The notes under the pieces: generated by a model
What the model saw: only the letters and a program-made list of their open reading frames with translations
Told to the model about the DNA's origin: nothing
Databases searched by the model: none
In this document: piece after piece, positions 12,001 through 28,198 of the stretch
How positions within the stretch are numbered: the first letter of the stretch is position 1
Layout of the letters: every line of letters begins with the position of its first letter
Assembly: GCF_000014785.1 (NCBI RefSeq)
Contig: NC_008340.1
Span: 1,200,001-1,232,000 of the forward strand
Origin: Alkalilimnicola ehrlichii MLHE-1
GTDB taxonomy: Bacteria; Pseudomonadota; Gammaproteobacteria; Nitrococcales; Halorhodospiraceae
DNA: 32,000 nucleotides
Direction: 5' to 3'
Position numbers and translations under genes: made by a program

Positions 12001-15000
12001 CCACCGGTGGTGATGTGGTCGTCCGGGCGGATGCGGTGGAGGGTGGTGGCGAGGTCCGGTTGGGCCCGGACCTGGAGGCCATCTTCAGCGACTTCGCCGG
12101 TGGGGATCTCAACCAGGTGCCGGCCGAGTTCCTGGAGCCGGGCGGGCCGAGCATTCGCATCCTGGTGGAGTCCAACGAGTGGCTGCAGGTCAACGACCTG
12201 ATCATCGACGACCGCCGTGACGGCAGCATCACCATCGCCCAGGAGAGCGGCGCCTTCGGCGGTATCGCCGTGCCGACCCGGGTCTCCGGGGTGGGTGAAC
12301 TGCCAAGCGGGCTTCGCTACGACACCGGCGGGGTGGAGGCCACCCCGGAGATCCGCGTGGTGCACCAGTTCGAGGTCCCGCCCCAGGAGGACCACCTCTA
12401 CACCAACCCGGAGATCCGCCTGGGCCACGAGCCGGACCCCGCCGACCAACTGGAAGGCGAGTCGGTGACCGCCCGCATCATCAACCCGCGCGGTCTGGTG
12501 CAGGTGGGCAACCAGGCCGGCAGCATTATCTCCTCGGCCAGCATCGAAGCCGCCGCGGTGGAGATCGTCGCCGGTGGTAATTTCGTGCAGAACTGGATTC
12601 CCGGGTTCTTCCACGCCGGCGGGCAGCCCGAGGCCGCCGGCGAGGCCAGCCGCATCCTGGCCGGGGGCGACATCTACATCAGCGCCGAGCACATCAATGT
12701 CAATGGCCTGATCCAGAGCGGGTTCGACGAGTGGACGCTGGATTTCTCCTCCGACCTGCTGGGGAATGCCGGGACCACCCTCGATTTCGACGCCGACAAG
12801 GGCCACAGCCTGGGTGATTACCTGGAGTGGTACGGCAAGGGTTATCGTGCCACCAAGGAGGTGGAGGAGGCCCCGATACCCTTCTGGGCGCAGTTCTTGC
12901 CGCCCTCCATTTGGCACCTGCTGGGCTATGGCTTCGCCCCCGACGTCGACGCGGCGGATGTGCCGGACGATTTCCGCACCGCCTACAACGCCGGCCGTAG
13001 CGGTGAGCAGTTCCTGCAGCTGACCGGCGGCGAGGGCTTCGACGTGGAACTCGGCACCGTGGCCAGCTTCTACGATGCCGAGGCCGACCGCATCGACATC
13101 CAGCGCGCCGCCGTGGGCGGTGGCTACATCTTCCTGGCGGGCGACGTGGTGAGCACCGGCGGAGGCGAGATCCGGGCCTTGTCGGGTTTCGGTGAGATCC
13201 GGGTGGATACCACCGGCGGCGGGGAGGACGCCTTCCGTACTCACCAGGATGTGGTGCTCTATGACCTGGACGCCGGGACCCAACCCCATGCGCCCAGTTT
13301 CGACCTGCCCGAGGAGGAGCTGATTTCTGCGGAGGGCCTAGCGCCCTGCCGGCCCTGCGTGAGGATCTGGGATACCGCCAAGCGTGACGGCGAGGGCAAC
13401 CCCATCGAGACCGTCTTCCAGCACGACTGGAACCCGGACCCAGCGGCCCCGGACGGGAGCTTCGGCACCATCGCCAAGACCGTCTCCCGGCTCGACCGCG
13501 AGCAGCGTGACGATGACTTCTTCCTGCTGCGCACCGTGGTCGACGAGGATGACCCCTTCTATGGCCAGGAGCAGGACGCAGGCTTCGGCCCCCGTCCGGG
13601 GGCCACCGCGCAGTACCTGCCCCGCGAAGGGATGCGCTACCTCTACGGCGACAGCGTGGATGAAGACTCCGGGCGGCTGCTGTTCCCGGACGACGATGTG
13701 CCGTCAGGGCCGGGCTATCAGTCCATGCGGGCGGACCGGGCTATCGACGTCGGGTTCATCGGCAACCCGGTGGGTACCATCGACATCAAGAGCATCGGTG
13801 ACGTGATCATCGACGGCAGTGTGCGCAACCCCCAGGGGCTGACCACGGTGGAGACCGTCGGTAGCATCCGGGAGCCGGAGCAGGGCGGGCTGTTGCAGGG
13901 TCGCCAGCTCACTCTGGAGGCCGGTGGCGCCGTCGGCAGTGAGGGCGCCCCGCTGCGGGTGATCGTGGGTGACGGCGAGGTCACGCCGGACGATGCCTGG
14001 CTGGTGGCCCTGGCCGGGGATGGCGGGGTCTTCCTGGACGGCCTGCGCGGCGATCTGCCGGTGCGCGAGGTGGGGACGCTCAGCGGCCATACCGTGGACA
14101 TCGACGCGGCCCGTCACTTGATCGACCGCGGCACCGCCCCCGACCGGCCCACGGTCTACGGCGCCCGGGTGCATCTGCGTGCCCGGGACGGCTCTATCGG
14201 TGGCAGGGAGCAGGGCGAATTCGTGCTGCCGCTGACCATCGCCTCCGGGGTCGGGGTTGTGGTGGACGATCCGGACGCGCTGCCGGATTGGCTGAACCTT
14301 CCGCTGGGCAGCGCCAACGTAACCGCCCGCGCCGCCGGCCATGTCCTGCTCGCGGAAGATGCCCGCGGACTGGCCAGTGCCGGTGTGCCCGTCGACGGTG
14401 ACATTCACGTGGAGGCGCTCCGCGCCGCCGAAGGCGATGTCCGGCTCTTTATCGCCGACGGCAAGCTGATCAGCGCCATCGACGCCGAGCTCGATACCGA
14501 CCGCATGGTCCGCCTGGGCGAGATGTGGGACTCGCTGGGGATGCTCGACGACGGCTCGCCCAACAGCGGCGTAGCCCGCTTTGTCGAGGATCAGGTGGAG
14601 GCCTTCGAGGCCTCGGTGGAGAGCCGCTACCGTGACTGGTGGGAGCTGGACCGCCTGGCCGGGGAGGACGGCGGCTTCGACCTGGCCCCGGATCGGGCCC
14701 GCATTTACGCCCACCGGGCCGGCGTCGACGGCTCACCGGAGGCGTGGGACGAGACGGCGGACCCGCAGGGCGTGGCCGACAACACCGCCGCGGTCAATGC
14801 CTGGCTGGAGGGCCGTTACGGCGCGCTCAGCGATGAATTGGGCGAACTGCTGCTGGAGGGCAACGGCGACCAGTCCCTGGCGGACCTGGGTACGGTGGTC
14901 GAGGAACCGCTGGCCGAGGATCCGGCCACCGGGGAGATGCTGTTCTATGAACGGGTCGAGTTCGATTACCAGGCGCCGGACAGTGTCCGTGACCAGCTCG

Positions 15001-17165
15001 CGGAAGGGGCGGAGTGGACCGAGGAGCAGTTGCTCAACGTCCTCAGCGAGGACCGGATGCTGGAGACTGTGGACACCCAGTACCAGCGGGTGGAGACCAT
15101 TATCCAGGGGGAGAATGTGGCCATCGAGGCGCCGCGGGGTTCCATCGGCTCGTCTGACGACCCGCTCTGGATCCCGGCCCCCGAGGACGAGGACAGCAAC
15201 TTTGATTTCACCGAGGAGGAACGCGCCGCCCTGGTCAGCGCCCAGCCGGGCGATGTCCGGCTGATCGGCGAGGTGGTGTTGGTGGATGGCCAGGTCATGG
15301 ACCTGGGCGATTTCCTGCGCCTGCTCGGCACCGGGGGCCCCGGCGGGCTCACCCTGGAGGATCTCGACACGGTCGATTTCGACGGCATCGAGATCGAGCA
15401 GGTACGCTACGCCGGGGTCATCGCCACGGAGGGGGGGCAGTCGCACCATGCCGCCGATGACCTTGGCGGCGACATCTTCCTGGGTGTCCCCGGCACCAGC
15501 ATCGCCCTGGAGCGGCTCTGGGGTGGTGGCGACATCCGCGTGCGGGTCGGCGGCGGTATCGAAGCCCACGACGACCCGACACGGGGCGATGATCCGGAAG
15601 ATGCCATCATCCGCGGCGGTGCGGCGGGGGTGCTGCTGGAGGCGGCCGGCGGCGGCATCGGCGCCGAGGGGTTGCCGCTCACCACCGCGTTGGACCCCCG
15701 CGCCCTGATCACCGCCCGGGCCGTGGGCTCGGTGCACCTGCACGCCCTGGGCGGTAACCTGACCCTGGACAGTGTCTTCAGCGAGCAGGGCGATGCCGTG
15801 CTGGCTGCCGACCAGGGGCATATCGCCCGTTTGGCGCTGCCGGGCGCGCCGCTGGCGGACTTCGGCACCCTGGACATCGCCGCCGATGAGATCCGGCTGG
15901 ATGCCGGCACCTTTGTCGGCGCGGTGGATCGCGACGCCTTCCTGGCCCTGGACAGCACGGCTGAGCCGGGGGACCTGGAGGCGGTCACCGACGCCGCCAT
16001 GCGCCTGCGCCACGGTGACGACGCCCGGGTGACCGGTTCTGCCGGGGACCGCTTCCAGGTGTTCGCGCCGGAAGGGGGGCTGGTGGTCCGCGATGTGGAA
16101 GCCGGCGGCCGGGTCGTGGCCGGCGCCTGGGAGGATGTCACCCTGGAGCGGGTGACCAGCACCGCTGGCGACGGCGAGGCGGCCTTCGTCTTCAGCGAGA
16201 CGGGCTTCATCATCGGCAGCAATGAGGCCGGCCTGGAGGAACCGCTACACCTGCGGGCACTGGGCGGGGACGCCACCACGCGGTTGATCGCCCCGCTGGG
16301 CATCGGTCTGCCCGATGACTTCCTGTTCCTCGATGCCACCCGGATCAGCTCCGCCACCACCCTGGGCGGTCACGCCTTCCTCCACGGCACCACCGATTTG
16401 CGAGCCGATCTGATAGACGTGCCCACCGGGCGGTTGGAGGTGCGCGCGCCCCAGGCCATCGAAATCGATCGGTTGCGGGTTCACGACCGGGTGGACCTCA
16501 AGGGCGACGCCATCGAGGCGCACATCGAGCACACCGCCAACCCGGACCCGCTGCCGCTGGACGTGGTGGGCCTGGTCGAGCACTACGCATCGGAGGTGGA
16601 CCTGTCCGTGGACACCCCGGCCGATCTCATCGTCGAGCGGCTCTATGCCCGCCGCGCCCGATTGGAGACCAACACCACGCGAGTCGACATGCCGGACAAC
16701 GACATCTTCCACTGGTTGGAGGTGTTCACGCCGGAGGTCCACCTGTGGGCCGACAACCAGCGGCCCGACCGGCGCGACGTGGACGTCCAGCTCTATGAGC
16801 CGGGGTACCGCTTCTTTGTCGACCAGGACGGGCGGCACACCATCACCAACGCCTTCAGCGGCGCCTACCGGCCCGGCTACCGCCTGGAGCTGGTCAACTA
16901 TCAACCGGGCCGCGACCGCGCCCGTTTCGATGTGGATGGTCGCAGCATTGTGCGCGATGCCGGTCGGCTGGAGCAGCGCATCGTGCCGATCCCCGACACC
17001 CTGCCGGGGCTGCGGGCCTTCTGGCCGGACGACGAGGTCTCGGTGCAGGTGGTCGGTGCCGGCCTGCCGGGGGCGCCGCCCGACTTCCCGGTTAACCTGG
17101 ACTGGACCGGTCTGTTGCAGGGCGATGACGATCAATCCGGGGCAGAGGAGAATGGCGCTCAATGA
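1..17165 (+). CDS. Giant secreted filamentous exoprotein, TpsA-like / LktA-family-like beta-helical adhesin (5' partial, >5,718 aa)
   Basis: One uninterrupted frame runs from the window edge (codons in phase with nt 3/9) to TGA at 17163-17165. The true start and any N-terminal TPS secretion domain therefore lie upstream of the window. The translation is Gly/Ala/Val/Asp/Thr-rich with recurring beta-helix-like units (e.g. GAGKVALGAAVAYNEI). It has almost no Lys and only two Cys, as expected for type V secreted filamentous proteins. Its stop overlaps the start of a TpsB gene. The family call rests on motif recognition plus context, not on a search. Confidence 0.9.
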   Translation, partial: ALVPEGLEEVAESAIDSGLEAVDDELDNQDLPDFGLGLGLVDASAIVTLEDGAELDAGGNVNIHAEAQRTARAEAHADGDGLGGAFALASISGQTAVTVEEGASIVAGGDIDLRAASHNELVAEAVTEVGDGFDVGLGGSVALGFLQSEPEDGGTTVQVQEGATLAAGGDLGLSAFTEHDVTVDATTTLGSGGEAAFGATVAYLGLDWTTRTLLTGGAVADDTVEPPVGIVAGGDLRMVARTDQAIHTGASVETTGDISVGLAAAVAELNNTTRVVLDGTVRAGGDATLLAESITRAQHTVATTRAAEDADNNGGNGNDGPDEAADDQGTSDYVAGLVGDVDTGEPEETPGAGGNGGLALDIGAAVAYTDARDSASTTLGGNTQLLPPAGPLGPGGQVAIVSRRQLDNLSTRARSGTEATGPDGDDGANSINAAVSYARLDQIARTEIADGARIEAGRIGVGAEVDLPARVAWGDEDNEDGPGGLDDIAGADSDDLDDWLTSEASTSSETGGTVNIAGAVNLLDLTATAEALVGTGDDPTDVTTLHAVGDGGDWETELGGDTTWHWDDAVAVAARSRVETVDVAGQAAAAGTVGVGGGVNWHLRESTARARLAGSADISADTGGVSVSADRRDRAIVLTPIAGESDGGAVGLGASVAYARIDGTSQAQLDEGAMVAAGGALAVTAGGDLHAEILTASKTSGDATAGIAGTVAFADISLDTTAAVHGQPVDNALEVGDLYLHALDLQDYQVQASAEAQGDVAIGLAGAVLDTEAGTRALLYRDVTTDGDVVLIADSETTGRGVAASTRAETGEAGDNGNGENNTGDDRDLNTVDFVQQRGERGNEGVDDGLQDVAGDPGAGQSEEAGFDVNVGAAVAFTGADDSAGAHIGEAVTISGPGGGAAGDVAVLARRAESGYRGRAQTEVETAPEDDGVGVGVGAALTLTFMDNSAEALIGASAVVDAHRVGVAADVILPDHFEGPAWDGLETLRDLAQDDDDELTYDEAESNLLDMADGWLTTYANAAAESEDGVFDGAAAVNFARYNVNADAWIGEGAEVTAGGTAGDTGWSTELRPAQDNGDPALSRRWNEAITVSAGADVRTIDVAGNVGGLLTAGVAGDATVGIGAGFAWLERGGHVSAGIADHAVVSASHGQGTIGVHAERFDQSIGIAPSSGHGASFAGNGTVVVNRLDTDTVAAVSHAAAVDAAALTVSAGRDLRWWSVAGSITLAESVAVGVGISVNELRTDTRAVIGDVAGLRPAMAGGGDVTELDDTEQGITADQVTVAARSDGLVGSASIAGGAAGETGEPPATDNWTDSGLTNDVIGVTSDRTEGAEAPEDETIAEAVQSGTGEPAGALDEQEASADDLDEDGDLANPDPTQPDLETFPDEGADIPDAGADADSEETDLGVAVAGSASVNLSSLNTTALIEDVSLAARDADTTDVTASAVAAVDTIAVSGSGALVLGGNSSDPQVAIAGTVGVNLLGDHTRARLVDTRIEQPGQVTVEALRDGELISVGMGLAITASGSTKAAAVAGSVSLSDISNETAATIEGGTIGDPGSDPEPDDGSGVQVLAYDRSSIGTGGGSLFGGKGGGFGAAVTLAQVRNTIDAGILGTRITDVAEVTVDALSATRIISAGAVLGYGGKGAVGGAVVLNRIGNTTKAAIADRDDGDDVERAEITANERVRVRARSASDDERVALDDRIDAAGGGHVYNFSGEGTALAEPEAEGDRDWGDDSYETGGDEFAGEGGDQAEIDSGYDDAAEDARFDGGPLEGDAIVGVAGSISASGKASIGLAFSGNQIDNDYIAEVRGARIDGVDGELSVDAADRSRVIGLGVGGGASGKVAIAGSGAANLIGGEARATIGGSRAQADDGPVHLAEIDAGAVNLGADRGSRIDALAGNVAFSGKAGIGAAVAYNAIDTAVAAEINHADLALSGGDLSIDAGSSSDIYGVAVSGGGGGKVALNGSAIINFIDLDVSAGLGSSRVRDTGAVRITAGDHGAGGQAAIWSLAGAINGAGKVALGAAVAYNEIESRFAADITGADIEALGPVDVTAEVSGDINTLGAAGGGAGKVALGGAATVSRIDNTVTASLTGSRLYAPAALVTVAASQDSRIRALGAAIQGGGKVGGGAAVTVNQIGSGVTAEVTGGAPGLPAAIDDPAGGGDAEAHYHLGHLVVDARSDNEIQTIAAGAAAGGVGGVAGSVSTNLFGNRTKARIADGADVLAEGHVLVDAASSDNVALVAGSLGFGGKAFGAAGTVAVNIVESETHAWIGGEDPGDATVVVARAQQPGTVSGRDHRLHAIPGLVDKSDGENTFDDEDGVEIYDSEVDDAAEDRDGTGGGSTGGFSVEDEAGDYLLSRLVRDDDRGVDGVRVSARSDQTTSAALATAGISANVVKGGVGLAATALVNRIAGETTAGIRNSEVSSETDVAVSAGGHVHTRGLVIGAALGSVGASGAAVVDVVTRRTRAGIDDATVTAGGRIDVDAAGSQSTSGLAIGASGGTYASLAGGGVVSRLGAQTLAEVTGSRLEAGDVGVQADSDTGVTMLTGTVSVGAAAAAGSFNVAVVDAVTVARIADSDQDRSRLSVEGEVDVAAESLNRFGTIAASGAAGGTAIAGTLGLSLQQSVTQARIEGAAIGQGDDDVPAQVNVRARDHLEVGAFAGGASLGMGMGLGAAANVFSGQASVLAEVRDGAAIEAGAVSVSAERSAELSLYTATLGAGQTGFSAGVGVILLGVGAGEVTPTRGEDDIAEDDVEGGLERELNGNGGGTLDTANTFANFSFEGDPDNDANTEDDVGGSLSDDQRDSLESDLEFNLTESVIDGDDHQTVARIDASDLRADRVDVTADDRVATRNYVGSGALGGVGFGAAVGFTRVGNGVVAEIGGDGTLDVGELTIRAGHDDLGGGTAAETRAWAGAAGGIGLAAAYADADVTTGVRATLGPVNLQRDAADDAGVELTIDAFDHGGTYAETIGVAAGFVAGVGAAISRAARTSTVIAEVADDTAVGSDDEDSADFDLSLSAVSDGGVAVDGIALGAGVVGGGAAALALGEERSTVQARVGNGADLRLGDGALTLDALARPDVTADGVGVAAAVTGAIAAAVSRAYSSATVEAAVGDLDGPGGAAVQARAVDVRARSLPVGSYGAEAEAIAGSIAKGVAVSGSFAFATDTATVNAGLGPGADLTLGGDGLSVWAEADPAARARTHARTFAGGVAFGANLSQAASNAEVAAVVGDQASVRLADGVDEADFTIRAIANDDGSRTAYATGAVSGGALLVSANGGYARAYEQTAVDARIGTGATLDAGAGEVRLGADATPHARAVLASQSYGGALAIGAAITDARVAADVTAAIGDGTAILGGGDLTVHAHVARPAGADSAFARSEASSGALASANAALAEARNHARSRALTGAGVTLPGGVVSLRAENHSRQHGHSASESYGAFAAGMTVTRVESDTLTHAILGTDNQASDNDDRPDVVDVTTNASSHDHGFGQTATGGAIDGAAAEVHTFSTADNRAQVLGHHSDPLQVGVLNVRALQDTRFSGVVDTSRASVAGASGARLYHNANRVTGIVNVDEEREAFYGETSVVEAGIGDHADIRALYVDVIAEQAVERVADAGNDIRVAGGGVLGASAGRGATYIETITRAGIGTGATVNVELDLLVRAIEAITAEQVARLNTGNAIDIARAESVMHTDHQNDVIIGGNANITAGGDVVLSNATELDLVAHTRARTSGVASFARGNSEAEADVREGITVGNGARLASAGNVVMRTGLGDGGLPARKGVEADTYLYNKGALPLENDPRVHADLVVDSRIDVADNAVVEAGQDAYLIAPVGFRYRARGEGEGQDIYRRAAESIANFFRRLVRADEVSLAKEVRSEDLVRGSTITIDGQVVGAGGMHQYLWVRQGDDDDERILASPGVGYFFEERDVRGDLEALVGAYRDLLGEYVEPDPDDPEGSGLLFWRAAAQIETLAGRLAALGDEDDGPYDGGRAVPFIEVEDITATGGDVVVRADAVEGGGEVRLGPDLEAIFSDFAGGDLNQVPAEFLEPGGPSIRILVESNEWLQVNDLIIDDRRDGSITIAQESGAFGGIAVPTRVSGVGELPSGLRYDTGGVEATPEIRVVHQFEVPPQEDHLYTNPEIRLGHEPDPADQLEGESVTARIINPRGLVQVGNQAGSIISSASIEAAAVEIVAGGNFVQNWIPGFFHAGGQPEAAGEASRILAGGDIYISAEHINVNGLIQSGFDEWTLDFSSDLLGNAGTTLDFDADKGHSLGDYLEWYGKGYRATKEVEEAPIPFWAQFLPPSIWHLLGYGFAPDVDAADVPDDFRTAYNAGRSGEQFLQLTGGEGFDVELGTVASFYDAEADRIDIQRAAVGGGYIFLAGDVVSTGGGEIRALSGFGEIRVDTTGGGEDAFRTHQDVVLYDLDAGTQPHAPSFDLPEEELISAEGLAPCRPCVRIWDTAKRDGEGNPIETVFQHDWNPDPAAPDGSFGTIAKTVSRLDREQRDDDFFLLRTVVDEDDPFYGQEQDAGFGPRPGATAQYLPREGMRYLYGDSVDEDSGRLLFPDDDVPSGPGYQSMRADRAIDVGFIGNPVGTIDIKSIGDVIIDGSVRNPQGLTTVETVGSIREPEQGGLLQGRQLTLEAGGAVGSEGAPLRVIVGDGEVTPDDAWLVALAGDGGVFLDGLRGDLPVREVGTLSGHTVDIDAARHLIDRGTAPDRPTVYGARVHLRARDGSIGGREQGEFVLPLTIASGVGVVVDDPDALPDWLNLPLGSANVTARAAGHVLLAEDARGLASAGVPVDGDIHVEALRAAEGDVRLFIADGKLISAIDAELDTDRMVRLGEMWDSLGMLDDGSPNSGVARFVEDQVEAFEASVESRYRDWWELDRLAGEDGGFDLAPDRARIYAHRAGVDGSPEAWDETADPQGVADNTAAVNAWLEGRYGALSDELGELLLEGNGDQSLADLGTVVEEPLAEDPATGEMLFYERVEFDYQAPDSVRDQLAEGAEWTEEQLLNVLSEDRMLETVDTQYQRVETIIQGENVAIEAPRGSIGSSDDPLWIPAPEDEDSNFDFTEEERAALVSAQPGDVRLIGEVVLVDGQVMDLGDFLRLLGTGGPGGLTLEDLDTVDFDGIEIEQVRYAGVIATEGGQSHHAADDLGGDIFLGVPGTSIALERLWGGGDIRVRVGGGIEAHDDPTRGDDPEDAIIRGGAAGVLLEAAGGGIGAEGLPLTTALDPRALITARAVGSVHLHALGGNLTLDSVFSEQGDAVLAADQGHIARLALPGAPLADFGTLDIAADEIRLDAGTFVGAVDRDAFLALDSTAEPGDLEAVTDAAMRLRHGDDARVTGSAGDRFQVFAPEGGLVVRDVEAGGRVVAGAWEDVTLERVTSTAGDGEAAFVFSETGFIIGSNEAGLEEPLHLRALGGDATTRLIAPLGIGLPDDFLFLDATRISSATTLGGHAFLHGTTDLRADLIDVPTGRLEVRAPQAIEIDRLRVHDRVDLKGDAIEAHIEHTANPDPLPLDVVGLVEHYASEVDLSVDTPADLIVERLYARRARLETNTTRVDMPDNDIFHWLEVFTPEVHLWADNQRPDRRDVDVQLYEPGYRFFVDQDGRHTITNAFSGAYRPGYRLELVNYQPGRDRARFDVDGRSIVRDAGRLEQRIVPIPDTLPGLRAFWPDDEVSVQVVGAGLPGAPPDFPVNLDWTGLLQGDDDQSGAEENGAQ
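4767..6800 (+). repeat. Degenerate tandem ~54-codon coding repeats (G-G-K-x-x-x-G-x-A-x-x-x-N/x-x-I modules) inside the giant ORF
   Basis: In-frame Gly-Lys motifs have Lys codons at 4770, 4932, 5367, 5529, 5721, 5883, 6057, 6216, 6378 and 6753. Most spacings are 159-192 nt, and 162 nt is the commonest. Unit examples: FGGKGGGFGAAVTLAQV, YGGKGAVGGAVVLNRI, ASGKVAIAGSGAANLI, FSGKAGIGAAVAYNAI, GGGKVALNGSAIINFI, GAGKVALGAAVAYNEI, GAGKVALGGAATVSRI, GGGKVGGGAAVTVNQI, FGGKAFGAAGTVAVNI. The repeats are diverged at the DNA level. Confidence 0.8.
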
Positions 17166-18847
17166 AGCGGTGGGGCTCGGAAGAATCGCGGCGGGCGCCG
17201 CTGCTGGCGGTGGTCGTTTGCCTTCCCCTGCTGACGGCGGGTGCGGTCCATGCGCAGACACCGGGCGCCCAGCCCGAACCCGGGCCGGGCGTCGATCCGG
17301 CGCTCCAGTTGCGGGAGTTGTTGCGCGAGCGTGAGCGCCTGGAGGAGCGCGGGCCACGGCCGGAGGAACCCGAGCTGGATATCCCGGAGCTCGTCCTGCC
17401 CGACCTGGAGGATGAGACGGTGGAGTTCCTCCTCAGAGAGATCCGCTTCTCCCCTACGGAGCTGCTGGACGAGCAGTGGCTCACCGAGCTGGCGGAGGAA
17501 TACATCGGGGAAGTGGTCAGTTTCGGTCAGGTGAACGAGCTGGTGGAACGCATCAACAGCGCCTATGCCAAACAGGGCGATGTCACTGCCCGGGCCTTCG
17601 TGCCGCCACAGCAGATCGTCGACGGCCGGCTGCAGATCCTGCTGGTGGAGGCCCGGATCGGTAGCGTGGCCGTGGAGGGGGCCGAGCACACCGAACCGCG
17701 GTACATCCGCGGCCGTATCCCGCTGGAGGAGGGCGAGGTGCTGCGGGTGCCCGATCTGCGCGCCTCGGTGCGTGAATTCAACCGTCGTGAGGCGCTGCAG
17801 GCCGGCGTGGCGCTGCGTCCGGGCGAGGCGTTCGGTGAAAGCGATGTGGTCCTGCAGATGCTTGAACCCCCGCGGCTGCGCTACCAGCTCTTTGCCGACA
17901 ACGCCGGCGCACGCAGTACCGGTGAAGAGCGGATCGGCGGCATGGCCAGTTGGTATTCGCCCTTCGGCCGGGCCGACCGGTTCACCGCCTTTCTGGTGGG
18001 AAGTAGCGGGGCCACCGCCCTCGACTTGAGCTACGCCACCCCTGTCGGCCATCGCGGGGCGGCCCTCACCGCCCGCCTCGCCTACAACGAGATCGAGATC
18101 GTCCGTGGTCCGCTGCGCGATCTGGACATAGAGGGTGAATCGTTGCGTGGTTCCCTGCGCTATACCCATCCCCTGGCATGGAGCGAGCGCCGCACCTGGG
18201 ATGCCGTCGGCAGCCTGGGCTATGTCCGCTCCAAGACCGAACTGGACGGGGTTACTTTCGCCGACAACGAGGTGACGCGGGTGGACGCAGGCGTGCGCCT
18301 GCGCCAGTACGGCCAACCCGGTCCCCACACCCACTTCCTCGAGGTCGAGCAACGCCTGGCCCACGCCCACTTCCGGGAGAGCGCCGGGGAACTGGATGAG
18401 ACCGATGACAGCCTGCTCTGGGATGGCCGCCTGCTCTGGGAGCAGCGCCTGCCCCGGGCCTTTTATACCCTGTCGCGGGCCGAGTGGCAGTATGCCGACA
18501 GCCCGGAGGCGGTGCTCTCACCGCAGCTCTTCCAGGTGGGCGGCGCTTTCGACGTGCGCGGCTACCCGCAAGGGGCCACCGCGGGTGAGAGCGGCTATTA
18601 CCTCAGCCTGGAGTTGCGCTACGCCGGCTTTGCCGCCGTGGAGCCCTTCGTCTTCGTTGATCACGGCGGGGTGCGCCAGGAGGACCAGGATAACGAGCGC
18701 CTGACGAGCTGGGGCGCCGGTGCCTTCCTGGACCTCGGTCGCGGCTTCTCCGGCAGCCTGACGGTAGGCGTGCCCGCCAGCGACGTGTTGCCGGACCAGG
18801 ACGACTACCGGATCCATTTCCGGATCGCCTGGCAGGGCCAGCGCTGA
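17162..18847 (+). CDS. Two-partner secretion outer-membrane transporter, ShlB/FhaC/HecB (TpsB, Omp85 superfamily)
   Basis: ATG 17162 overlaps the giant-ORF stop (ATGA), with GAGGAG 11 nt upstream. There is a signal peptide, MKRWGSEESRRAPLLAVVVCLPLLTAGAVHA/QT. A POTRA-like region follows (VEFLLREIRFSPTELL...INSAYAKQGDVTARAFVPPQQIVDGRLQILLVEARIGSVAVEG). It also carries an FADNAGARSTGEER motif and the TpsB/Omp85 loop-6 motif FDVRGY (nt 18554-18565). At 561 aa it is a typical size for this family. Confidence 0.9.
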   Translation: MKRWGSEESRRAPLLAVVVCLPLLTAGAVHAQTPGAQPEPGPGVDPALQLRELLRERERLEERGPRPEEPELDIPELVLPDLEDETVEFLLREIRFSPTELLDEQWLTELAEEYIGEVVSFGQVNELVERINSAYAKQGDVTARAFVPPQQIVDGRLQILLVEARIGSVAVEGAEHTEPRYIRGRIPLEEGEVLRVPDLRASVREFNRREALQAGVALRPGEAFGESDVVLQMLEPPRLRYQLFADNAGARSTGEERIGGMASWYSPFGRADRFTAFLVGSSGATALDLSYATPVGHRGAALTARLAYNEIEIVRGPLRDLDIEGESLRGSLRYTHPLAWSERRTWDAVGSLGYVRSKTELDGVTFADNEVTRVDAGVRLRQYGQPGPHTHFLEVEQRLAHAHFRESAGELDETDDSLLWDGRLLWEQRLPRAFYTLSRAEWQYADSPEAVLSPQLFQVGGAFDVRGYPQGATAGESGYYLSLELRYAGFAAVEPFVFVDHGGVRQEDQDNERLTSWGAGAFLDLGRGFSGSLTVGVPASDVLPDQDDYRIHFRIAWQGQR

Positions 18848-18944
18848 GTGCTGCATGACCGCGGCCGGCACCGTGCCCCCAGCTGGATCCCACCCGCAGG
18901 CTATGCTGTAAGGTAGTACAGGCCCACCGCAGGGAGAAGCGGCC

Positions 18945-21900
18945 ATGGCGATTCACCTGCACTTCGTCGGCCGCGAGGTCGAGTCGGACGATCCGGATGC
19001 CGCGGTCTTCGAGGTGGGCTCGCCCTCCCGGAGCTACGATCTCAGTTGGGTCCGCAGGGACGTCGAATGCGACGCCACTGCGCTGATCGAGATAGAGGAT
19101 GACGACGAGTGCATCCTCTGGACCACGGCGGAAGATCTGGCCGAGGACGAGGCCGCCCGCCGGGGGCACCTGCGCGGAGAGGGCGACGCCGATATTGCGC
19201 TGGATGCATTGCTGGCGGGCGCGTCCACGAGCTCGCGGGGCGTGCTGCGCCGGTTTGGCCGGGTGGTCCTGCGGATCTTCGGGCGCCGGGTCGCCGACGA
19301 ATTTGCCGGCAGGTCCGCCAAGGCCATCGCCGAGTACTGGGAGGGCCAGGTCACACCGGGCCACGGGCTGTACCGCTGCGACCGCCCCGAGGGCCCGGAC
19401 GCCGTCGACGAGGCGCAACGTGTGCGCCAGGGCGAGGGCCTGCCCGGTGACGGGCCACTGCTGCTGCTCCTCCACGGCACGGCGTCCAGTATCGCGGGCA
19501 GTTTCTCCAAGCTCGGTGGGTCCCCCAGAGGTGATGAGCCCACCGTATGGGCCACGCTACAGGCCCATTACCGGGCACCGGACGGCCGCTCGCGCATCTG
19601 CGCCTTCCAGCACCCCACCCTCAGCGCCAGTCCCATCGACAATGCCCTGCAGTTGGTTGACGACCTGCCCCGGGGGGCTGAACTCCACCTGGTCACCCAC
19701 TCCCGTGGCGGGTTGATCGGCGATCTGCTCTGCCTTGCCGGGCAGGATCCGTCTGCGCTCCGGGGTGGCCTGGAGCAGCAGTACCGGCGCGACGAGCAGT
19801 GGCTGGCGGCCACCGGTCGTGATCTGGACGATCCCGGGATCGCTGCCCTCGCGGAACAGGACCGGGCCGACCGGGAGGCGCTGCTGCAACTGCTGGAACG
19901 GCTCCGGGACAAAGGGATCCGGGTGCTCCGCTACGTGCGGGTGGCCTGCCCGGCGGCCGGCACCTCTTTGGCCTCCGAGCGCCTGGACCGACTGCTGAGC
20001 CTGCTGGGCAACCTCATCCGGTTGCTGCCGCCGGCCAACGGGCCCTTCTTCAACGGCGTGATCCGGCCGATGATCCGGGCCCTGGTCGCGCAGCGATTCA
20101 GCCCGGACCGGTTGCCGGGGCTTGAGGCGATGCTGCCCCACGGGCCCTTGGTGCGCTGGCTGAACCTGGCGGCCCCCGAGGCGGATGCCGAGCTGGCGGT
20201 GATCGCCGGCGACGCCGAGGGCAGCGGGTTGATCCGCCGGCTGGGGGTGCTGTTGCTGGACCGGCTGATCTTTCCCGGCCGGCACGATCTGGTGGTGGAC
20301 ACCCGCTCCATGTACGAAGGCCTGCGGCGCCGGCAAGGGGTGTGGCAATACTTCCAGAGCCGGCCCGACATCTCCCACTTCAACTATTTCGACAACCCTG
20401 ACTCACAGCGGGCGCTGGTCGGTTGGCTGCTGGAGACCGACGACCGGGCGCTGTTCCGAAGCCGCGATGCCGAGGCACCCTCCCTGGCGGCCGAGACCTT
20501 CAGCGGTGTGCTGGGCGTGAGCCGGGGTGACCCCCACCGGCCGCTGCTCTTCCTGCTCCCGGGGATCATGGGCTCGCAACTGAGGGCGCGGGAAACCCGC
20601 ATCTGGATGGTCCGCCGGCAGATCCTGCTGGGCCGCATCACCCGGCTGGCCTACGGCCGCAGTGGGGTGGAGACCGATGGGGTCTTCAGTCGGTATTACC
20701 AGCCGCTGGCCGAGTATCTGGCCGAGACCCATGAGGTGCATGTCTTCCCCTACGACTGGCGGCTCTCCATCGACGACGCGGCCCGGCGCCTGGCCGCAGA
20801 GGTGCGCCGGGCCCGCGGGAGCGGGGGGCGCCCGGTGCGGTTCGTGGCCCACTCCATGGGCGGGTTGGTGACCCGGGCCATGATGGCCAGCGACCCGACC
20901 TTGTGGGCGGAGATCTCGGAGCAGCCGGGCTCGCGGCTGCTGATGCTGGGCACGCCGAACCGCGGTTCGTTTGCCATCGTCGAGGCACTCCTCGGGCACG
21001 ACCGGCTGGTGCGAATGCTGGCGCTGCTGGATCTGCCGAACAGCCTGAACCGGATCCTCGGCCTTTTGGCCGAGTACCCGGGGGTCATGGATCTGCTGCC
21101 CCAGGACGGCGAACTGGACCTCTACGACGTGGCCACCTGGAGCCGCCTGACCCACCACAACGGCCGCTTCGGGCACGTGCCCGAAGCAGAGCGGTTGAGG
21201 GGTGCGCGGCTGCGCCGCGACCGGCTGCCGGCGCGGGTCTCGGGGAATGACCCCATCGTCTACGTGGCCGGTCAGGCGCCGCTGACGCCGGCCGGTATCC
21301 GTATGGACGGCAGCGGCGACGGCCGGCTGCGCTTTGTCGGGACCACCGAGGGGGATGGCCGGGTCACCCACGCCGCCGGCGAGTTGCCGGGGGTGCCGCG
21401 TTGGTTCTGCGACGCGGTGCACGGCGATCTCCCCGCCACCCGCTCAGCCTTCCCCGCCTATCTCGACCTGCTGGAGACCGGGCGGACAGACCGTTTGCCC
21501 ACGGAACCGCTCAGCCGCCGGCGTGGCCTGGGGGCAAGGGAGTTCCTCTACGACCCTTCGCCGGCCACCCAGCCGGATGAGGCGACACTGATCGCGGAGG
21601 CCCTGGGGGCCTCCGGGGACGCAGACGAGGAGGCGGGCCGCCCCGGCCTGACGGTCTCGCTGGTATATGCCGATCTGGCCCAGGCGCGCCACCCGGTGCT
21701 CTGCGGGCATGCCGTGGGCGATGTGATCTCCGGGGCCGAGGCGGCCCTAGACGAGGCCCTGGGCGGGGCACTGTCCCGGCGCTACCAACTGGACCGCATC
21801 CCGGGCCGGGTCGGCAGCACGGCGGTGATTCTGCCCGACGGATCGCAGCGCTCGCCGGTGCCCGGCGCCGTGGTGATGGGCCTCGGTGAGCTGGGCGAGC

Positions 21901-23327
21901 TCAGCGCCAACGTGATCGCCGAGGCCAGCTACGCCGCCTGCCTGGACTATCTGTTGGCGGTGGCCAGCCCGAGCGACGGCGCCTGGGTCGGGCTCAGCGC
22001 GATCCTGGTGGGCGGCAATAGCCCGGCCGCCCTGCACGAGGCGGATATCATTCGATCGATCATCCAGGGCGTGGTCCGGGCCAACCGCGCCATGGTCGAG
22101 CAGGCGAATGGCACCGGTGTGGCGATCACGGAGTTGGAGATCCTGGAGCACGACGGCCTTCGTTTCCAGGAGGCCTGCCAGTTCCTGCGCGCCGATACCG
22201 GCCAACTCAGCGAGGAGCTGGGCACGGACCTCGTGCTGCGCCGGGAGGAAAGGCATCCCGAGCCGCGGGTGGAGACCGGCAGCCTGGCAGCGCGGCGGGC
22301 GACCCGCCGTTGGCGCCGGCTGATCGTCACCGAGCAGGAGCGGCCCCCGCTGTTGAACTACGAACTGCTGGGCCTGCGTGCGCGAATCCCCGGTCGGGCG
22401 GTGGACTTCGATCCGGTCACGGTGGCGCGGCTACTGGCGGAGGCCATGAGCGATCCGCGCTTCGACCGCGAGACCGCCAATGCCCTCTACCATCTGCTGA
22501 TCCCCAACCACCTGGGCGATCAGATCGATCATTTCGATGCCCTGATGCTGATCGTGGACGAGCGGACCGCGCGCCTGCCCTTCGAGATGCTGAGCAACAA
22601 CCGCCGCCCCGGGGCGCGGCCCTGGGCGGTGCGCCAGGCCATGGTGCGCCAGTTCCGGACGCCCGAGTTCCGTCAGACCCTGAAGCCGGTGCGGGCGCAG
22701 AGCGCGCTGGTCCTGGGTGACCCGGTCACCCCCTTGCCGGAGTTGCCCGGCGCCCGGGCGGAGGCGCAGGCCGTGGCCACCGCGCTGCTGGGCCAGGGCT
22801 ACGATGTGCGGCTTCTGTTACAGCCGCGCGGGGCCGATGTGCTGCGTGCGCTGTTCGCCAAGCCCTGGCGGATACTGCATGTGGCCGGGCACGGCATCCA
22901 CGAGGCCCACGGGGAGGCCCCCGGGGCGTTGCGCAACGGCATCCTGCTGGACGACGGCGCCCTGCTGGGCCGCCCGCAGATCAGCGAGCTGCCGGAGACC
23001 CCGGACTTCGTGTTCCTGAACTGTTGCCACCTGGGTCGCATGGTCCAGCTCACCGCAGAGCAGCGGGTACGGTTTCAGCACTTCGCCGGTACCATCGCCC
23101 GCAGCTTCATCAACATCGGCGTGCGCGGCCTGGTGGTCGGGGGCTGGGAGGTCAACGACCGGGCCGCCCAGCGCTTCGCGGAGGTCTTCTACCAGGCCCT
23201 GCTCAACGGCGAAGCATTGGGCCTGGCCGTGTTGCGTGCCCGCGCGGCCTGCTGGGCTCAGTTTCCCGATTACAACACCTGGGGGGCCTACCAGTGCTAC
23301 GGGGACCCGGACCTGCGGCTGGTGTGA
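18945..23327 (+). CDS. Multidomain protein: N-terminal alpha/beta-hydrolase module + LCAT/PGAP1-like lipase module + unknown middle region + C-terminal CHAT (caspase-like Cys protease) domain
   Basis: ATG 18945 is preceded by AGGGAGAAG (18931-18939). The frame stays open for 1,460 aa to TGA 23325-23327.
- Module 1: LLLLLHGTASS ... HLVTHSRGGLIGD (Ser253, nt 19701-19703).
- Module 2: LLFLLPGIMGSQL, FPYDWRLS (nt 20751-20762), RFVAHSMGGLVTR (Ser637, nt 20853-20855), TEGDGRVTH (Asp804), AVHGDLP (His826).
- CHAT domain: WRILHVAGHG (His1316, nt 22890-22892) and FVFLNCCHLG (Cys1360/1361, nt 23022-23027), then GLVVGGWEVND ... GAYQCYGDPDLRLV.
- There is no N-terminal signal peptide (MAIHLHFVGREVESDD). 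Confidence 0.9.
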   Translation: MAIHLHFVGREVESDDPDAAVFEVGSPSRSYDLSWVRRDVECDATALIEIEDDDECILWTTAEDLAEDEAARRGHLRGEGDADIALDALLAGASTSSRGVLRRFGRVVLRIFGRRVADEFAGRSAKAIAEYWEGQVTPGHGLYRCDRPEGPDAVDEAQRVRQGEGLPGDGPLLLLLHGTASSIAGSFSKLGGSPRGDEPTVWATLQAHYRAPDGRSRICAFQHPTLSASPIDNALQLVDDLPRGAELHLVTHSRGGLIGDLLCLAGQDPSALRGGLEQQYRRDEQWLAATGRDLDDPGIAALAEQDRADREALLQLLERLRDKGIRVLRYVRVACPAAGTSLASERLDRLLSLLGNLIRLLPPANGPFFNGVIRPMIRALVAQRFSPDRLPGLEAMLPHGPLVRWLNLAAPEADAELAVIAGDAEGSGLIRRLGVLLLDRLIFPGRHDLVVDTRSMYEGLRRRQGVWQYFQSRPDISHFNYFDNPDSQRALVGWLLETDDRALFRSRDAEAPSLAAETFSGVLGVSRGDPHRPLLFLLPGIMGSQLRARETRIWMVRRQILLGRITRLAYGRSGVETDGVFSRYYQPLAEYLAETHEVHVFPYDWRLSIDDAARRLAAEVRRARGSGGRPVRFVAHSMGGLVTRAMMASDPTLWAEISEQPGSRLLMLGTPNRGSFAIVEALLGHDRLVRMLALLDLPNSLNRILGLLAEYPGVMDLLPQDGELDLYDVATWSRLTHHNGRFGHVPEAERLRGARLRRDRLPARVSGNDPIVYVAGQAPLTPAGIRMDGSGDGRLRFVGTTEGDGRVTHAAGELPGVPRWFCDAVHGDLPATRSAFPAYLDLLETGRTDRLPTEPLSRRRGLGAREFLYDPSPATQPDEATLIAEALGASGDADEEAGRPGLTVSLVYADLAQARHPVLCGHAVGDVISGAEAALDEALGGALSRRYQLDRIPGRVGSTAVILPDGSQRSPVPGAVVMGLGELGELSANVIAEASYAACLDYLLAVASPSDGAWVGLSAILVGGNSPAALHEADIIRSIIQGVVRANRAMVEQANGTGVAITELEILEHDGLRFQEACQFLRADTGQLSEELGTDLVLRREERHPEPRVETGSLAARRATRRWRRLIVTEQERPPLLNYELLGLRARIPGRAVDFDPVTVARLLAEAMSDPRFDRETANALYHLLIPNHLGDQIDHFDALMLIVDERTARLPFEMLSNNRRPGARPWAVRQAMVRQFRTPEFRQTLKPVRAQSALVLGDPVTPLPELPGARAEAQAVATALLGQGYDVRLLLQPRGADVLRALFAKPWRILHVAGHGIHEAHGEAPGALRNGILLDDGALLGRPQISELPETPDFVFLNCCHLGRMVQLTAEQRVRFQHFAGTIARSFINIGVRGLVVGGWEVNDRAAQRFAEVFYQALLNGEALGLAVLRARAACWAQFPDYNTWGAYQCYGDPDLRLV

Positions 23328-23368: not shown

Positions 23369-24148
23369 CTAGGGCACGAACACCACCTCACCGCTCTGCG
23401 GGTTGACCAGCGTCAGCCCGAAGTCGGTGGTGCCGCGGGTCACCCGCACGAAGGCCCCGGTATCCAGGCAGACGTGGGACAGGCGCCGGCGGAGGGTGCG
23501 ACCGACGGTGTGGCCGCAATAAGTGGTGGACAGCGATTCACTGCGCTCGGGCAGGGGGCTGCGCAGCCGCCCCATGAGCCGTCGGGACCAGAGCAGCGGC
23601 GTCGGGTCGACGCCGGGCAGGCCGGCGTCGATGTCGGCGTCACTCAGCAGCCCCTGTGGCGCCCCCGGACTCACCAGTTCGGCATGGACCAGTTGAAAGC
23701 GCCCGGCGCCGCTGCCCACCACCAGCACATGGGGCAACTCGGCCTGCATGTGGAGCAGGGGCATCAGCGGGTGGTCCGCGGGGTCGGGATCGAGCAGCAG
23801 GTCCTGCGCCCAGGTGTCGGCGCCGTTGGCCAGCAACAGGTGGGCCGCCTCGATCCTGCGCAGGGACCCGGGCGGTGCCTCCAGCCAGTCCCGGATCATA
23901 TCGTCGTGATTGCCCCGTACGCTGTGGAACCAGGACGCCAGCAGCAGTTCCAGGCAGGCCACCGACTCCGGCCCCCGGTCGGTCAGATCGCCCACGCACA
24001 GCAGACGGTCGCCCCCTTCCGGGTTGAAGTCGACCCGTTGCAACCCCTCATTGAGCAGGGAACGGCAACCGTGCAGGTCACCGACCACCCAGTCCCGGCG
24101 CTGGTGGTTAGGCGGCAACCGCTCAATGATGGTCTGGTGTCGAGCCAT
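23369..24148 (-). CDS. Ser/Thr protein phosphatase-type metallophosphoesterase (lambda phosphatase / PrpA-PrpB-like, PPP family)
   Basis: The 259-aa ORF carries the PPP metallophosphoesterase motifs in the canonical order: VVGDLHGC, CVGDLTDRGP, VRGNHDDM, then HAELV and YCGHT. A GGAAGA sits about 7 nt upstream of ATG 24148. Confidence 0.85.
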   Translation of the reverse strand: MARHQTIIERLPPNHQRRDWVVGDLHGCRSLLNEGLQRVDFNPEGGDRLLCVGDLTDRGPESVACLELLLASWFHSVRGNHDDMIRDWLEAPPGSLRRIEAAHLLLANGADTWAQDLLLDPDPADHPLMPLLHMQAELPHVLVVGSGAGRFQLVHAELVSPGAPQGLLSDADIDAGLPGVDPTPLLWSRRLMGRLRSPLPERSESLSTTYCGHTVGRTLRRRLSHVCLDTGAFVRVTRGTTDFGLTLVNPQSGEVVFVP

Positions 24149-24331
24149 GACAGGTCTTCCGTTGCGTAGTATCAGGCTAGCAGCGGTGGCAGGGAGCTGA
24201 CTCTTTAGGTAGTTCCCTCTAGGTAGAGAGACGAATTACCGCGCAGGGCCCTTCGGCATAACCTGACAGTGAATTCGGCGGGAGCACAACCGCCGGACCC
24301 GAGACCCAACTCAATGCCTGAGGTGACCATC

Positions 24332-24724
24332 ATGAAGACCTTTGTTATCAAGACTGCGACGGCCCTGACGCTCGGTGCCGGCCTGGCCGTTTCCGGCCTG
24401 GCCGCGGCCGAGAACTGGACCACCCACGTGGGCCAGGTGCGGGCGGATCTCCCCACCCAGTCGATTGCTTCCAGCGGTGTGGGCAGCGGGGAGAACTACC
24501 AGCACTTCGTCGGCCATGTGCGGGCGAACGGCCCCCGTGAACTGAGCCCGGGCGAGGTCCTGGTCAGCGAGAACTACGTGCCTCACATCGAAGCGGTGCG
24601 GAATAAGGCGCGGTTCGACCAGGTGGCTGCGGACGAGCTGCGTGGCAAGCGCGAACAGGCGCAACGGGATACCCGCCACGGGATTCAAAGGCCCATCGGC
24701 GGCGGCCGGGAGGGATTCCGCTGA
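24332..24724 (+). CDS. Small secreted protein of unknown function with three ENY/W-x3-V/I-x2-VR repeats
   Basis: ATG 24332 is preceded by AGGTGA (24321-26) and gives the signal peptide MKTFVIKTATALTLGAGLAVSGLAAA/EN. The track ORF starts earlier (24269), but the upstream extension lacks an RBS and would bury the signal peptide. Three repeats start at 24410, 24491 and 24569: ENWTTHVGQVRAD, ENYQHFVGHVRAN, ENYVPHIEAVRNK. A terminator follows the gene. Confidence 0.7.
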   Translation: MKTFVIKTATALTLGAGLAVSGLAAAENWTTHVGQVRADLPTQSIASSGVGSGENYQHFVGHVRANGPRELSPGEVLVSENYVPHIEAVRNKARFDQVAADELRGKREQAQRDTRHGIQRPIGGGREGFR

Positions 24725-24746
24725 AGCCATGGTGTGTGACGGCGAA

Positions 24747-24790
24747 CAGGGCCCCTGGTGAACAAAGGCGTTCCCAGGGCCCTGCCTTTT
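24747..24790 (+). terminator. Rho-independent terminator after the small secreted-protein gene
   Basis: CAGGGCCCCTGG (24747-58) pairs with CCAGGGCCCTG (24774-84), giving 11 bp with one bulged C and a 15-nt loop. It is followed by CC-TTTT (24785-90) and sits 23 nt after the stop codon. Confidence 0.6.
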
Positions 24791-24836
24791 GATCACAAAA
24801 AATGAACATATTTCATCTATTGCCTTGTCCCATCGT

Positions 24837-24861
24837 TTGTCTGACTATATTGGTCAGACAA
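24837..24861. promoter_or_regulatory. Perfect 9-bp inverted repeat (candidate operator) upstream of the NTF2-GGDEF gene
   Basis: TTGTCTGAC-tatattg-GTCAGACAA. The spacer contains a TATA-like hexamer. It lies in a locally AT-rich stretch 50-125 bp upstream of the candidate starts 24913/24940/24961. Confidence 0.35.
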
Positions 24862-24960
24862 TGACCCGGCGTGCCGTGCCCGCTGGAAGCGTGCCGGTTG
24901 TCCGGATGACTGATGTTCAGAATAAGTAGGCGCCAAGACATGGCGCACGGGAGACTGTGG

Positions 24961-27557: not shown

Positions 27558-27710
27558 TCGATCTCCCTTTATTATTGTTTACTCTTTAAAAAGGCAATAT
27601 ATGGGTTAGTTCACAAAATGTAGGTATCGATTGAGTCCTGCAGTATGATCGTATGGTGTGCGGCCACACCTAAGCTTAGGTAAATACTTCTGAAAGATTA
27701 ATACCCTTTG
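27558..27710 (-). promoter_or_regulatory. AT-rich leader/promoter region of the HDOD-GGDEF gene, containing a 12-bp perfect palindrome
   Basis: G+C drops conspicuously immediately upstream of ATG 27557. The region contains the hairpin GGTGTG-CGGC-CACACC (27655-27670), which abuts and overlaps the perfect palindrome CCTAAGCTTAGG (27669-27680). I could not pin down a convincing -35/-10 pair by eye. Confidence 0.35.
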
Positions 27711-28155: not shown

Positions 28156-28198
28156 AGCCAAGGCGCCCCGCGGGGTGTCCCGGTGAAACATATGGCCG

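Follow-up and report, generated by a model that had tools for sequence, protein, structure and literature searches.

A twin-hydrolase CHAT protein of Alkalilimnicola ehrlichii, its widespread bacterial family, and a possible role in cellular conflict

The CHAT-protein gene and its product

We analysed 32,000 nucleotides of the Alkalilimnicola ehrlichii MLHE-1 genome (contig NC_008340.1, positions 1,200,001 to 1,232,000), referred to below as the window, and in particular a complete gene for a protein of 1,460 amino acids (aa) that joins two lipase-like hydrolases to a C-terminal CHAT domain (Table 1). From the N- to the C-terminus, the product consists of an N-terminal domain, alpha/beta hydrolase 1, alpha/beta hydrolase 2, an M17_N/Macro-like domain, and CHAT. 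Its relatives form a large family, often encoded next to metacaspase-like or TIR-domain proteins, and the protein could well be an effector of conflict or abortive infection. An earlier, sequence-only reading of the locus had described it as two lipase-like hydrolases with a C-terminal CHAT domain. This assignment holds, as the Pfam profiles DUF7379, LCAT, and CHAT all match above their cut-offs and the motifs quoted in that reading lie at the residues it named.

Table 1. Features of the window and, in the last row, coordinates in other family loci
Feature	Position	Strand	Residues	Basis or remark
Giant exoprotein-like open reading frame (ORF)	1..17165	+	at least 5,718 aa	context; cut by the window start
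TpsB-type outer-membrane transporter	17162..18847	+		Pfam POTRA_2 + ShlB
Shine-Dalgarno-like GGGAG	18932..18936	+		9-13 nt 5' of the ATG; direct sequence reading
CHAT-protein gene, complete	18945..23327	+	1,460 aa	ATG start; ORF list and translation
N-terminal domain, beta-rich	18945..19439	+	aa 1-165	AlphaFold2 (AF2), pLDDT mostly 60-88 there
Alpha/beta hydrolase 1 (DUF7379)	19452..20444	+	aa ~170-500	PF24096; alpha/beta fold in the AF2 model
Alpha/beta hydrolase 2 (LCAT / lysosomal PLA2-like)	20541..21524	+	aa ~533-860	Pfam, Foldseek, profile
Peptidase_M17_N-like / Macro-fold domain	21642..22244	+	aa ~900-1100	Pfam, profile, Foldseek
CHAT caspase-fold protease domain	22470..23306	+	aa 1176-1454	Pfam PF12770; Foldseek
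Metallophosphoesterase gene, convergent, downstream	23369..24148	-		Pfam Metallophos 3e-11; 41 nt between stop codons
Peptidase_M15_3 genes of other family loci	L004 15471-16040; L058 13516-14091			also L031, L063, L076, L079, L080, L082

The protein has a database match of 99% identity to a 'CHAT domain-containing protein' of A. ehrlichii. The reading frame is intact and the gene order is the same in two other A. ehrlichii assemblies (three assemblies in all). In a comparison of the window copy with one other strain of the species, 34 codon changes are synonymous and 15 are not, yielding a ratio of non-synonymous to synonymous rates (dN/dS) of ~0.15 for these two strains. Because this ratio is so far below one, the gene appears to be maintained by purifying selection. 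A pseudogene or a decaying gene is ruled out by the intact frame in the three assemblies and by the excess of synonymous over non-synonymous changes.

Neither a signal peptide nor a transmembrane segment is present in the 1,460-aa protein, the Kyte-Doolittle mean over 19 residues peaking at 1.39, in agreement with the sequence-only reading, which had seen no signal peptide. The hydrophobicity scan rules out a secreted or membrane protein. The product is predicted to be a soluble cytoplasmic multi-enzyme with modules conserved as one unit. A scan of the whole protein against NCBIfam profiles gave zero matches.

Residue conservation was calculated from a family alignment of 120 sequences (the window protein and 119 homologues), while two AF2 models were built from an alignment of 68 sequences. 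The model of aa 1-910, which includes both lipase-like modules, has pLDDT 83 and pTM 0.83; that of aa 880-1460 has pLDDT 86. The candidate catalytic residues proposed from the sequence (Ser253, Ser637/Asp804/His826, and His1316/Cys1361) are 95-100% conserved in the family alignment.

The N-terminal domain has conserved R98, G99, E133, and G141. Its 165 residues have no Pfam match, and Foldseek results for the N-terminal half are dominated by lipase folds. Modelling, suggested earlier as a check, left this region without an assigned family, although it did resolve aa ~900-1100, as described below.

Hydrolase 1 matches DUF7379 (PF24096) above the curated cut-off (113 bits, E 1.8e-32, from aa 173). 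Its oxyanion HG motif is His177-Gly178, within LLHGTASS and invariant in the family. The predicted nucleophile, Ser253 in THSRGG (codon 19701-19703), is conserved in 100% of the aligned sequences; Asp448 (or Asp423) is the candidate acid and His478 the candidate histidine, and all three residues are invariant as well.

In hydrolase 2, the LCAT profile (PF02450) matches aa 587-683 at 32.9 bits (cut-off 21, E 5e-8), the match spanning only profile positions 75-173 of 392. The PGAP1, DUF676, and thioesterase profiles give weaker echoes at the nucleophile elbow. Hence the profiles expected from the sequence-only reading were recovered (PF12770, PF02450, and a generic alpha/beta hydrolase in the form of DUF7379), with PGAP1 weak. 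The motifs are PGIMGS, YDWR, AHSMGG (Ser637), GDGRV (Asp804), and VHGD (His826). Ser637 (codon 20853-20855) is conserved in 95% of the family alignment and Asp804 and His826 in 100%; Ser637 aligns with the LCAT-family nucleophile, and Asp804 and His826 follow in the right order, making up a predicted triad.

The structural comparison points the same way. The best Foldseek match of the N-terminal half in PDB is lysosomal phospholipase A2 (LPLA2) 4x92 (E 1.4e-8, TMt 0.55), with LCAT 6mvd also found. The top ten PDB matches are four LPLA2 chains, five LCAT chains, and one Bacillus lipase (TMt 0.52-0.63), and bacterial family-I lipases and PlaB come after LPLA2 and LCAT. When the family profile was compared with sequences, LPLA2 was retrieved at 2e-6 and LCAT at 6e-5. 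The predicted fold of hydrolase 2 is therefore closest to LCAT/LPLA2, and the LCAT-like assignment proposed earlier agrees with Pfam, Foldseek, and the family profile. Both the AHSMG elbow and the Ser-to-Asp spacing are shared with these enzymes: the spacing is 167 residues here, close to the one in the LCAT and LPLA2 triads, which is ~162-164. On the other hand, identity is ~16-18% and the TM-score ~0.55, and hydrolase 2 is by prediction cytoplasmic, unglycosylated, and part of a multidomain protein.

The sequence-only reading could not assign aa ~900-1170. Most of this gap is now filled by a domain at aa ~900-1100 that is modelled as a Macro fold of the leucine aminopeptidase (LAP) N-terminal type. 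The window protein has a weak match here to Peptidase_M17_N (PF02789), a profile matched by 18 of 23 family members with the best E 4e-6; PF02789 belongs to the Pfam Macro clan. The family also matches the LAP N-terminal domain 3jru at the profile level (E 0.0025). Foldseek returns the macro protein TTHA0132 (2dx6, TMt 0.70) and macroH2A1.1 (2fxk, TMt 0.60), as well as the LAP N-terminal domains 3jru and 1gyt. Gly921, His922, Asp926, and Glu932 are invariant, and there is a GLG-x-x-G loop at 979-984; this and the other Gly-rich loop (GLGxxG and IGTGxGG in the family consensus) look like macro loops, by eye only. The canonical Macro profile PF01661 has no match in the middle domain, so that ADP-ribose binding by it is conjectural.

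The C-terminal region is, judging by profile and model, a bona fide CHAT domain with a caspase/separase-like fold and a predicted peptidase. PF12770 matches with 104.8 bits against a cut-off of 24 (E 7.7e-30) over profile positions 2-289 of 289. His1316 in HVAGHG (codon 22890-22892) and Cys1361 in LNCCHLG (codon 23025-23027) are both invariant in the 120 homologues. Foldseek matches include separase (7nj1 and 5fc2), DdvA (8rot), SAVED-CHAT (8tl0), and gingipain, with E 1e-8 to 1e-7.

In 113 of the 120 top homologues (~94%), CHAT is followed by a C-terminal TPR-S domain (PF20308). The window protein lacks it, as do a few other family members (P0009, P0011, P0080). Since its protein ends 6 aa past CHAT and a convergent gene begins 41 nt further on, the A. 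ehrlichii copy seems to be a genuine variant without TPR-S. A remnant of a lost TPR-S 3' of the stop codon is ruled out, as the convergent metallophosphoesterase gene fills that DNA.

The family and its gene neighbourhoods

A word-indexed search, with 8,000 candidates scored, yielded more than 1,100 matches to the window protein. The nearest relatives beyond A. ehrlichii are 34-39% identical to it and typically 1,750-1,900 aa long. Homology is collinear and full-length, covering all five regions, with 88-100% query coverage in most of the best 120 matches. When the twin-hydrolase half was used in an exhaustive HMMER scan, 1,160 clusters (at 50% identity) from many phyla matched with E<=1e-30. 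Relatives occur in at least 400 species-representative genomes, from Nitrospirota, Acidobacteriota, Chloroflexota, Proteobacteria, Actinomycetota, Verrucomicrobiota, Bacteroidota, and Cyanobacteria. The distribution is patchy across phyla, and outside A. ehrlichii identity never exceeds ~45% among the matches examined. Ten plasmids carry a family member. The phage genomes searched contained no homologue, which is neutral with respect to function.

By these comparisons, the protein shares its architecture with a large family of which no characterised member was found, and its first module is already a Pfam DUF. Our literature search found no characterised protein of this architecture; it did not cover Burroughs & Aravind 2020 (J Bacteriol e00365-20), which reportedly established the connection of TPR-S with TIR and possibly describes this architecture. 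It returned nothing on DUF7379, on TPR-S combined with CHAT, hydrolase, TIR, or caspase domains, or on CHAT with a Macro domain, and the sole relevant result of a broad search was the SAVED-CHAT paper. The terms CHAT, DUF7379, PF12770, PF24096, LCAT, and PF20308 are absent from the supplementary tables of the Thoeris-discovery preprint. As to the novelty that the sequence-only reading had guardedly raised, the protein is not a one-off fusion, given the large family, its Pfam DUF, and related pairings noted before (PMC7159879), while the statement that no characterised protein is known still stands.

We surveyed the neighbourhoods of 89 family loci, 86 outside Alkalilimnicola and three from Alkalilimnicola; the denominators below vary with the length of the available flanks. 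The most frequent partner is a Peptidase_C14 (metacaspase-like) gene of ~280 aa; of the 76 loci with sufficient flanking sequence, 35 (46%) have it directly 5' of the large gene and in the same orientation. These C14 proteins have an intact His/Cys dyad and match plant and yeast metacaspases down to 5e-33. ORFs with a TIR domain are present in 24 of 86 loci (28%); in 21 of these the distance is no more than 2.5 kb, and some TIR ORFs overlap the stop codon of the large gene. Separate TPR-S or MAP3K_TRAF_bd proteins are encoded in nine of 86 loci. Finally, in eight of 69 loci the large gene is followed, after ~20 nt or less, by a Peptidase_M15_3 gene of ~190 aa (Table 1), and this peptidoglycan peptidase may be a third, wall-lysing component. 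Thus the survey of orthologue neighbourhoods, proposed earlier as a check, did reveal recurring metacaspase, TIR, TPR-S, and M15 partners in the 86 loci.

One family member, P0053 (2,129 aa), has a TIR_2 / ThsB-like domain fused C-terminally to TPR-S, and this sequence constitutes direct domain-fusion evidence tying the family to TIR biology. Some copies lie among recognisable defence genes: RelBE, SIR2, TIR, and Wadjet JetC/JetD form a defence island around the copy in L005, TIR-SIR2 and nSTAND1 surround the one in L006, and an Azotobacter plasmid copy is found among type I restriction-modification (R-M), Fic, and insertion sequence (IS) elements.

Two loci, L011 (516-1895) and L005 (7050-9038), encode MAP3K_TRAF_bd/TPR-S proteins with an N-terminal 'MPFG' domain near TIR genes; these may resemble ThsI of type VIII Thoeris. 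In L089, a second, CHAT/separin-like protein of 910 aa (7938-10670, minus strand) adjoins a family member without TPR-S. TpsB is encoded in none of the 86 loci outside Alkalilimnicola, including those of members without TPR-S, and is present only in the three Alkalilimnicola loci. No secretion-system genes recur across the family loci.

The Alkalilimnicola ehrlichii locus

Upstream of the CHAT-protein gene lie the genes of an apparent two-partner secretion (TPS) pair. The giant ORF, cut by the window start, is 6,040-6,062 aa long in sister strains and overlaps the start of the TpsB gene with its stop codon. Its product is rich in Gly, Ala, Asp, and Thr, has beta-helix-like repeats, and has neither a Pfam match nor a PDB sequence match. 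It resembles a TpsA-type exoprotein, yet the full-length product has no Haemagg_act domain on record. The TpsB gene is followed, after 97 nt on the same strand, by the CHAT-protein gene, and no terminator-like or sigma-70-like site was found in this gap. The TpsB neighbour is probably not part of the CHAT-protein system.

Beyond the convergent metallophosphoesterase gene, there are two convergent diguanylate-cyclase genes, SnoaL_3-GGDEF (24913-26001, plus strand) and HDOD-GGDEF (25998-27557, minus strand), their 3' ends overlapping by 4 nt. In a sister strain, this pair is flanked by two IS copies (DDE_Tnp_1, 562 aa; L001 16064-17752 and 20927-22615), which are missing from the window (region 24000-29000). 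An ungapped comparison of strains shows 308 differences in the 2 kb downstream of the CHAT-protein gene and 99 in the 10 kb upstream, which suggests that the downstream region has indels or is variable. G+C content is ~0.70 in the giant ORF and the TpsB and CHAT-protein genes and 0.59-0.66 downstream (window 24000-32000), and this step may mark the edge of an acquired block.

With neither TPR-S nor partner genes, the A. ehrlichii copy is an atypical, reduced member of the family.

Comparison with known systems and possible function

In our analysis, the family would work most like SAVED-CHAT/PCaspase and the Thoeris effectors, yet it is a member of neither. SAVED-CHAT, from the type III-B CRISPR-CBASS hybrid of Haliangium ochraceum, forms filaments upon binding of cyclic triadenylate (cA3), and then PCaspase is cleaved and activated, leading to abortive infection (Steens et al., bioRxiv 10.1101/2023.06.23.546230). 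Likewise, it has a ligand-sensor domain fused N-terminally to CHAT; its CHAT fold (8tl0) is similar to the one modelled here, and the gene next to it encodes a small, separate protease of the caspase family, as is the case in the 35 of 76 family loci with a C14 gene. However, neither the window protein nor its neighbours match SAVED, CD-NTase, cyclic oligoadenylate synthase, or Cas10. The candidate sensors of the family are instead the M17_N/Macro-like domain and TPR-S, two lipase-like enzymes occupy the same chain, and the A. ehrlichii copy has no PCaspase-like partner.

Thoeris systems employ a Macro-domain effector in type II, TIR with the caspase-like ThsE in type IV, and ThsI with a TPR sensor in type VIII (10.1101/2024.10.24.620036; 10.64898/2025.12.03.692087). 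The family, too, is often linked to TIR (24 of 86 loci), carries TPR-S and a Macro fold, and combines with caspase-family proteases. It differs in that the effector is about five times larger and has twin hydrolases, the middle domain, which the canonical Macro model does not match, fits the LAP-N branch, and the window has no TIR ORF.

More distant parallels exist. Kaur et al. 2020 (eLife e52696, PMC7159879) noted in silico that predicted conflict systems with MoxR-vWA or other NTP-dependent cores couple a caspase-superfamily peptidase obligatorily to an alpha/beta hydrolase. The pairing is similar. Here, by contrast, the peptidase and the hydrolase are fused and the hydrolase is duplicated, and the family as a rule has no MoxR, vWA, or STAND NTPase core. 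The CHAT/clan-CD proteases, among them separase, type III-E Csx29, and DdvA, share the C-terminal fold and the His/Cys dyad and differ in the N-terminal regions, partners, and biology.

With confidence about evenly balanced, we interpret the 1,460-aa protein as a conflict/abortive-infection or suicide effector, in which a CHAT protease would be coupled to a phospholipase-type attack on the membrane. The individual mechanistic steps are less certain than this overall reading. The protein would be held inactive until a trigger reaches its regulatory modules, namely the Macro-like domain next to CHAT and/or, in most relatives, the C-terminal TPR-S. The trigger would then activate CHAT, probably by oligomerisation as in SAVED-CHAT, and in typical family members CHAT might cleave and activate the adjacent metacaspase-like protease in a cascade of the CHAT-to-PCaspase type. 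The twin phospholipase/acyltransferase modules would attack membrane phospholipids, with wall attack by the M15 peptidoglycan peptidase added in some loci, and the infected cell would die or be arrested through these combined activities. The A. ehrlichii protein would represent a stand-alone minimal form, sensing through its remaining domains (Macro-like) and killing through its own lipase and CHAT modules; such a mode is plausible because a partner is likewise not recognisable in 22 further loci of the family.

We propose this mechanism because of several precedents: SAVED-CHAT, type IV Thoeris, the TPR domain of ThsI, and the pairings of Kaur et al. In established systems, a CHAT protease stays latent until a sensor in the same chain turns it on. 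In type IV Thoeris, N7-cyclic ADP-ribose made by TIR activates a caspase-like effector (10.1101/2024.10.24.620036), and the TPR domain of ThsI has been proposed to be a sensor of cyclic ADP-ribose, following a prediction by Burroughs & Aravind (10.64898/2025.12.03.692087). TPR-S itself has been proposed to sense TIR-made signals of the ADP-ribose type.

Several observations weigh against the effector reading. The evidence for defence comes from relatives and not from the A. ehrlichii locus, which is no obvious defence island, its neighbours being the TPS pair, the metallophosphoesterase, and the GGDEF genes; no C14, TIR, TPR-S, or M15 partner gene is present in the 32-kb window. In PADLOC-DB v2, no family matched the protein at E<=1, so that the search for a known anti-phage model, also recommended earlier, came out negative. 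Among the relatives, 22 loci with both flanks available (~30% of the family loci) have no recognisable partner, and there are metabolic-looking contexts (e.g., Paracoccus plasmid, L007). Lipid substrates are suggested by fold similarity only, at TM-scores of ~0.55. As the middle domain has no canonical Macro match and is nearest to the LAP-N branch, which is not known for ADP-ribose binding, its role as a sensor is a conjecture. We found no experiment on any family member in the literature. The single-chain, protease-gated lipid effector imagined by the sequence-only reading thus agrees with the metacaspase, TIR, TPR-S, and M15 links and the defence islands of the relatives, and is a hypothesis for the A. 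ehrlichii protein itself.

The same reading had offered a processing or acylating factor for the giant exoprotein as its alternative. Such a TPS accessory, co-transcribed with the exoprotein and TpsB genes, would modify the exoprotein (by acylation, lipid anchoring, or cleavage) or prepare the membrane for exporting it by remodelling. In its favour, the locus has three genes on one strand sharing a G+C content of ~0.70 against 0.59-0.66 downstream, a 97-nt gap free of terminator-like or sigma-70-like sites, and a gene order kept in two other A. ehrlichii assemblies; moreover, LCAT-type enzymes are acyltransferases. Yet TpsB is encoded in none of the 86 other family loci, where it is metacaspase, TIR, TPR-S, and M15 genes that are conserved as partners, and the protein itself has no signal peptide, transmembrane segment, or Haemagg_act (TPS) domain. 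Since it has no export signal, its contact with the exoprotein would be confined to the cytoplasm, which TpsA proteins leave unfolded via Sec. To our knowledge, known TPS systems require no such accessory factor. We consider this explanation improbable, and an exported toxin, a lipase/protease effector sent into competitors or hosts by a secretion system, even more so, to the point of being hardly credible. Lipase-fold effectors are common secretion-system cargo and the gene adjoins a secretion locus, but the protein has no detectable signal peptide, TPS domain, or secretion-system marker domain, no immunity-like small gene is adjacent (the downstream neighbour being the convergent metallophosphoesterase), and secretion-system genes are not recurrent in the family loci.

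A housekeeping or developmental regulator has a somewhat better standing, though it is still unlikely. This would be a signal-controlled lipase/protease for membrane-lipid remodelling, stress, or programmed death unrelated to invaders, and it would account for the 22 loci without an immune-type partner on either flank, for the metabolic or signalling-related contexts of some loci, for the GGDEF/HDOD signalling genes downstream in the window, and for a chromosomal gene under apparent purifying selection. Against it stand the patchy spread over many phyla (outside A. ehrlichii, relatives reach at most ~45% identity), the plasmid copies beside R-M systems and IS elements, and the strong over-representation of TIR (28% of loci) and metacaspase (46%) genes. 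It fits poorly because a patchy, plasmid-borne, TIR- and metacaspase-linked pattern typifies conflict systems.

Returning to the effector reading, we tentatively extend it to the family as a whole, with considerable doubt. Its members might form a bacterial apoptosis-like executioner complex, in which TPR-S and the Macro-like domain would perceive a nucleotide derived from TIR/NAD, or some other cue of infection, and switch on CHAT as the initiator, and CHAT would unleash the metacaspase executioner and the two phospholipases, joined by M15 in some loci; within this scheme, the A. ehrlichii protein would act as a minimal version that needs no partner. The plant EDS1-PAD4 lipase-like heterodimer is a receptor for TIR products. 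More speculatively still, the lipase-like pair, which is rigid in the model of aa 1-910 (pTM 0.83), could serve as such a receptor.

If this is true, the family, with its 1,160 or more clusters at 50% identity, represents a widespread, unstudied branch of bacterial caspase-type immunity, in which a CHAT protease is physically joined to membrane-attacking lipases and genetically tied to metacaspases and TIR signalling. Eukaryotic cell death and the TIR immunity of plants employ parts of the same metacaspase and TIR type. With M17_N/Macro-like and TPR-S, the family would, moreover, offer new candidates for sensing, and a proteolytic cascade from CHAT to a caspase would be known from a second natural example. 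The A. ehrlichii copy has neither the sensor repeat nor the partners and nevertheless appears to be under purifying selection; therefore, it could be a minimal model of the core four-enzyme chain acting alone.

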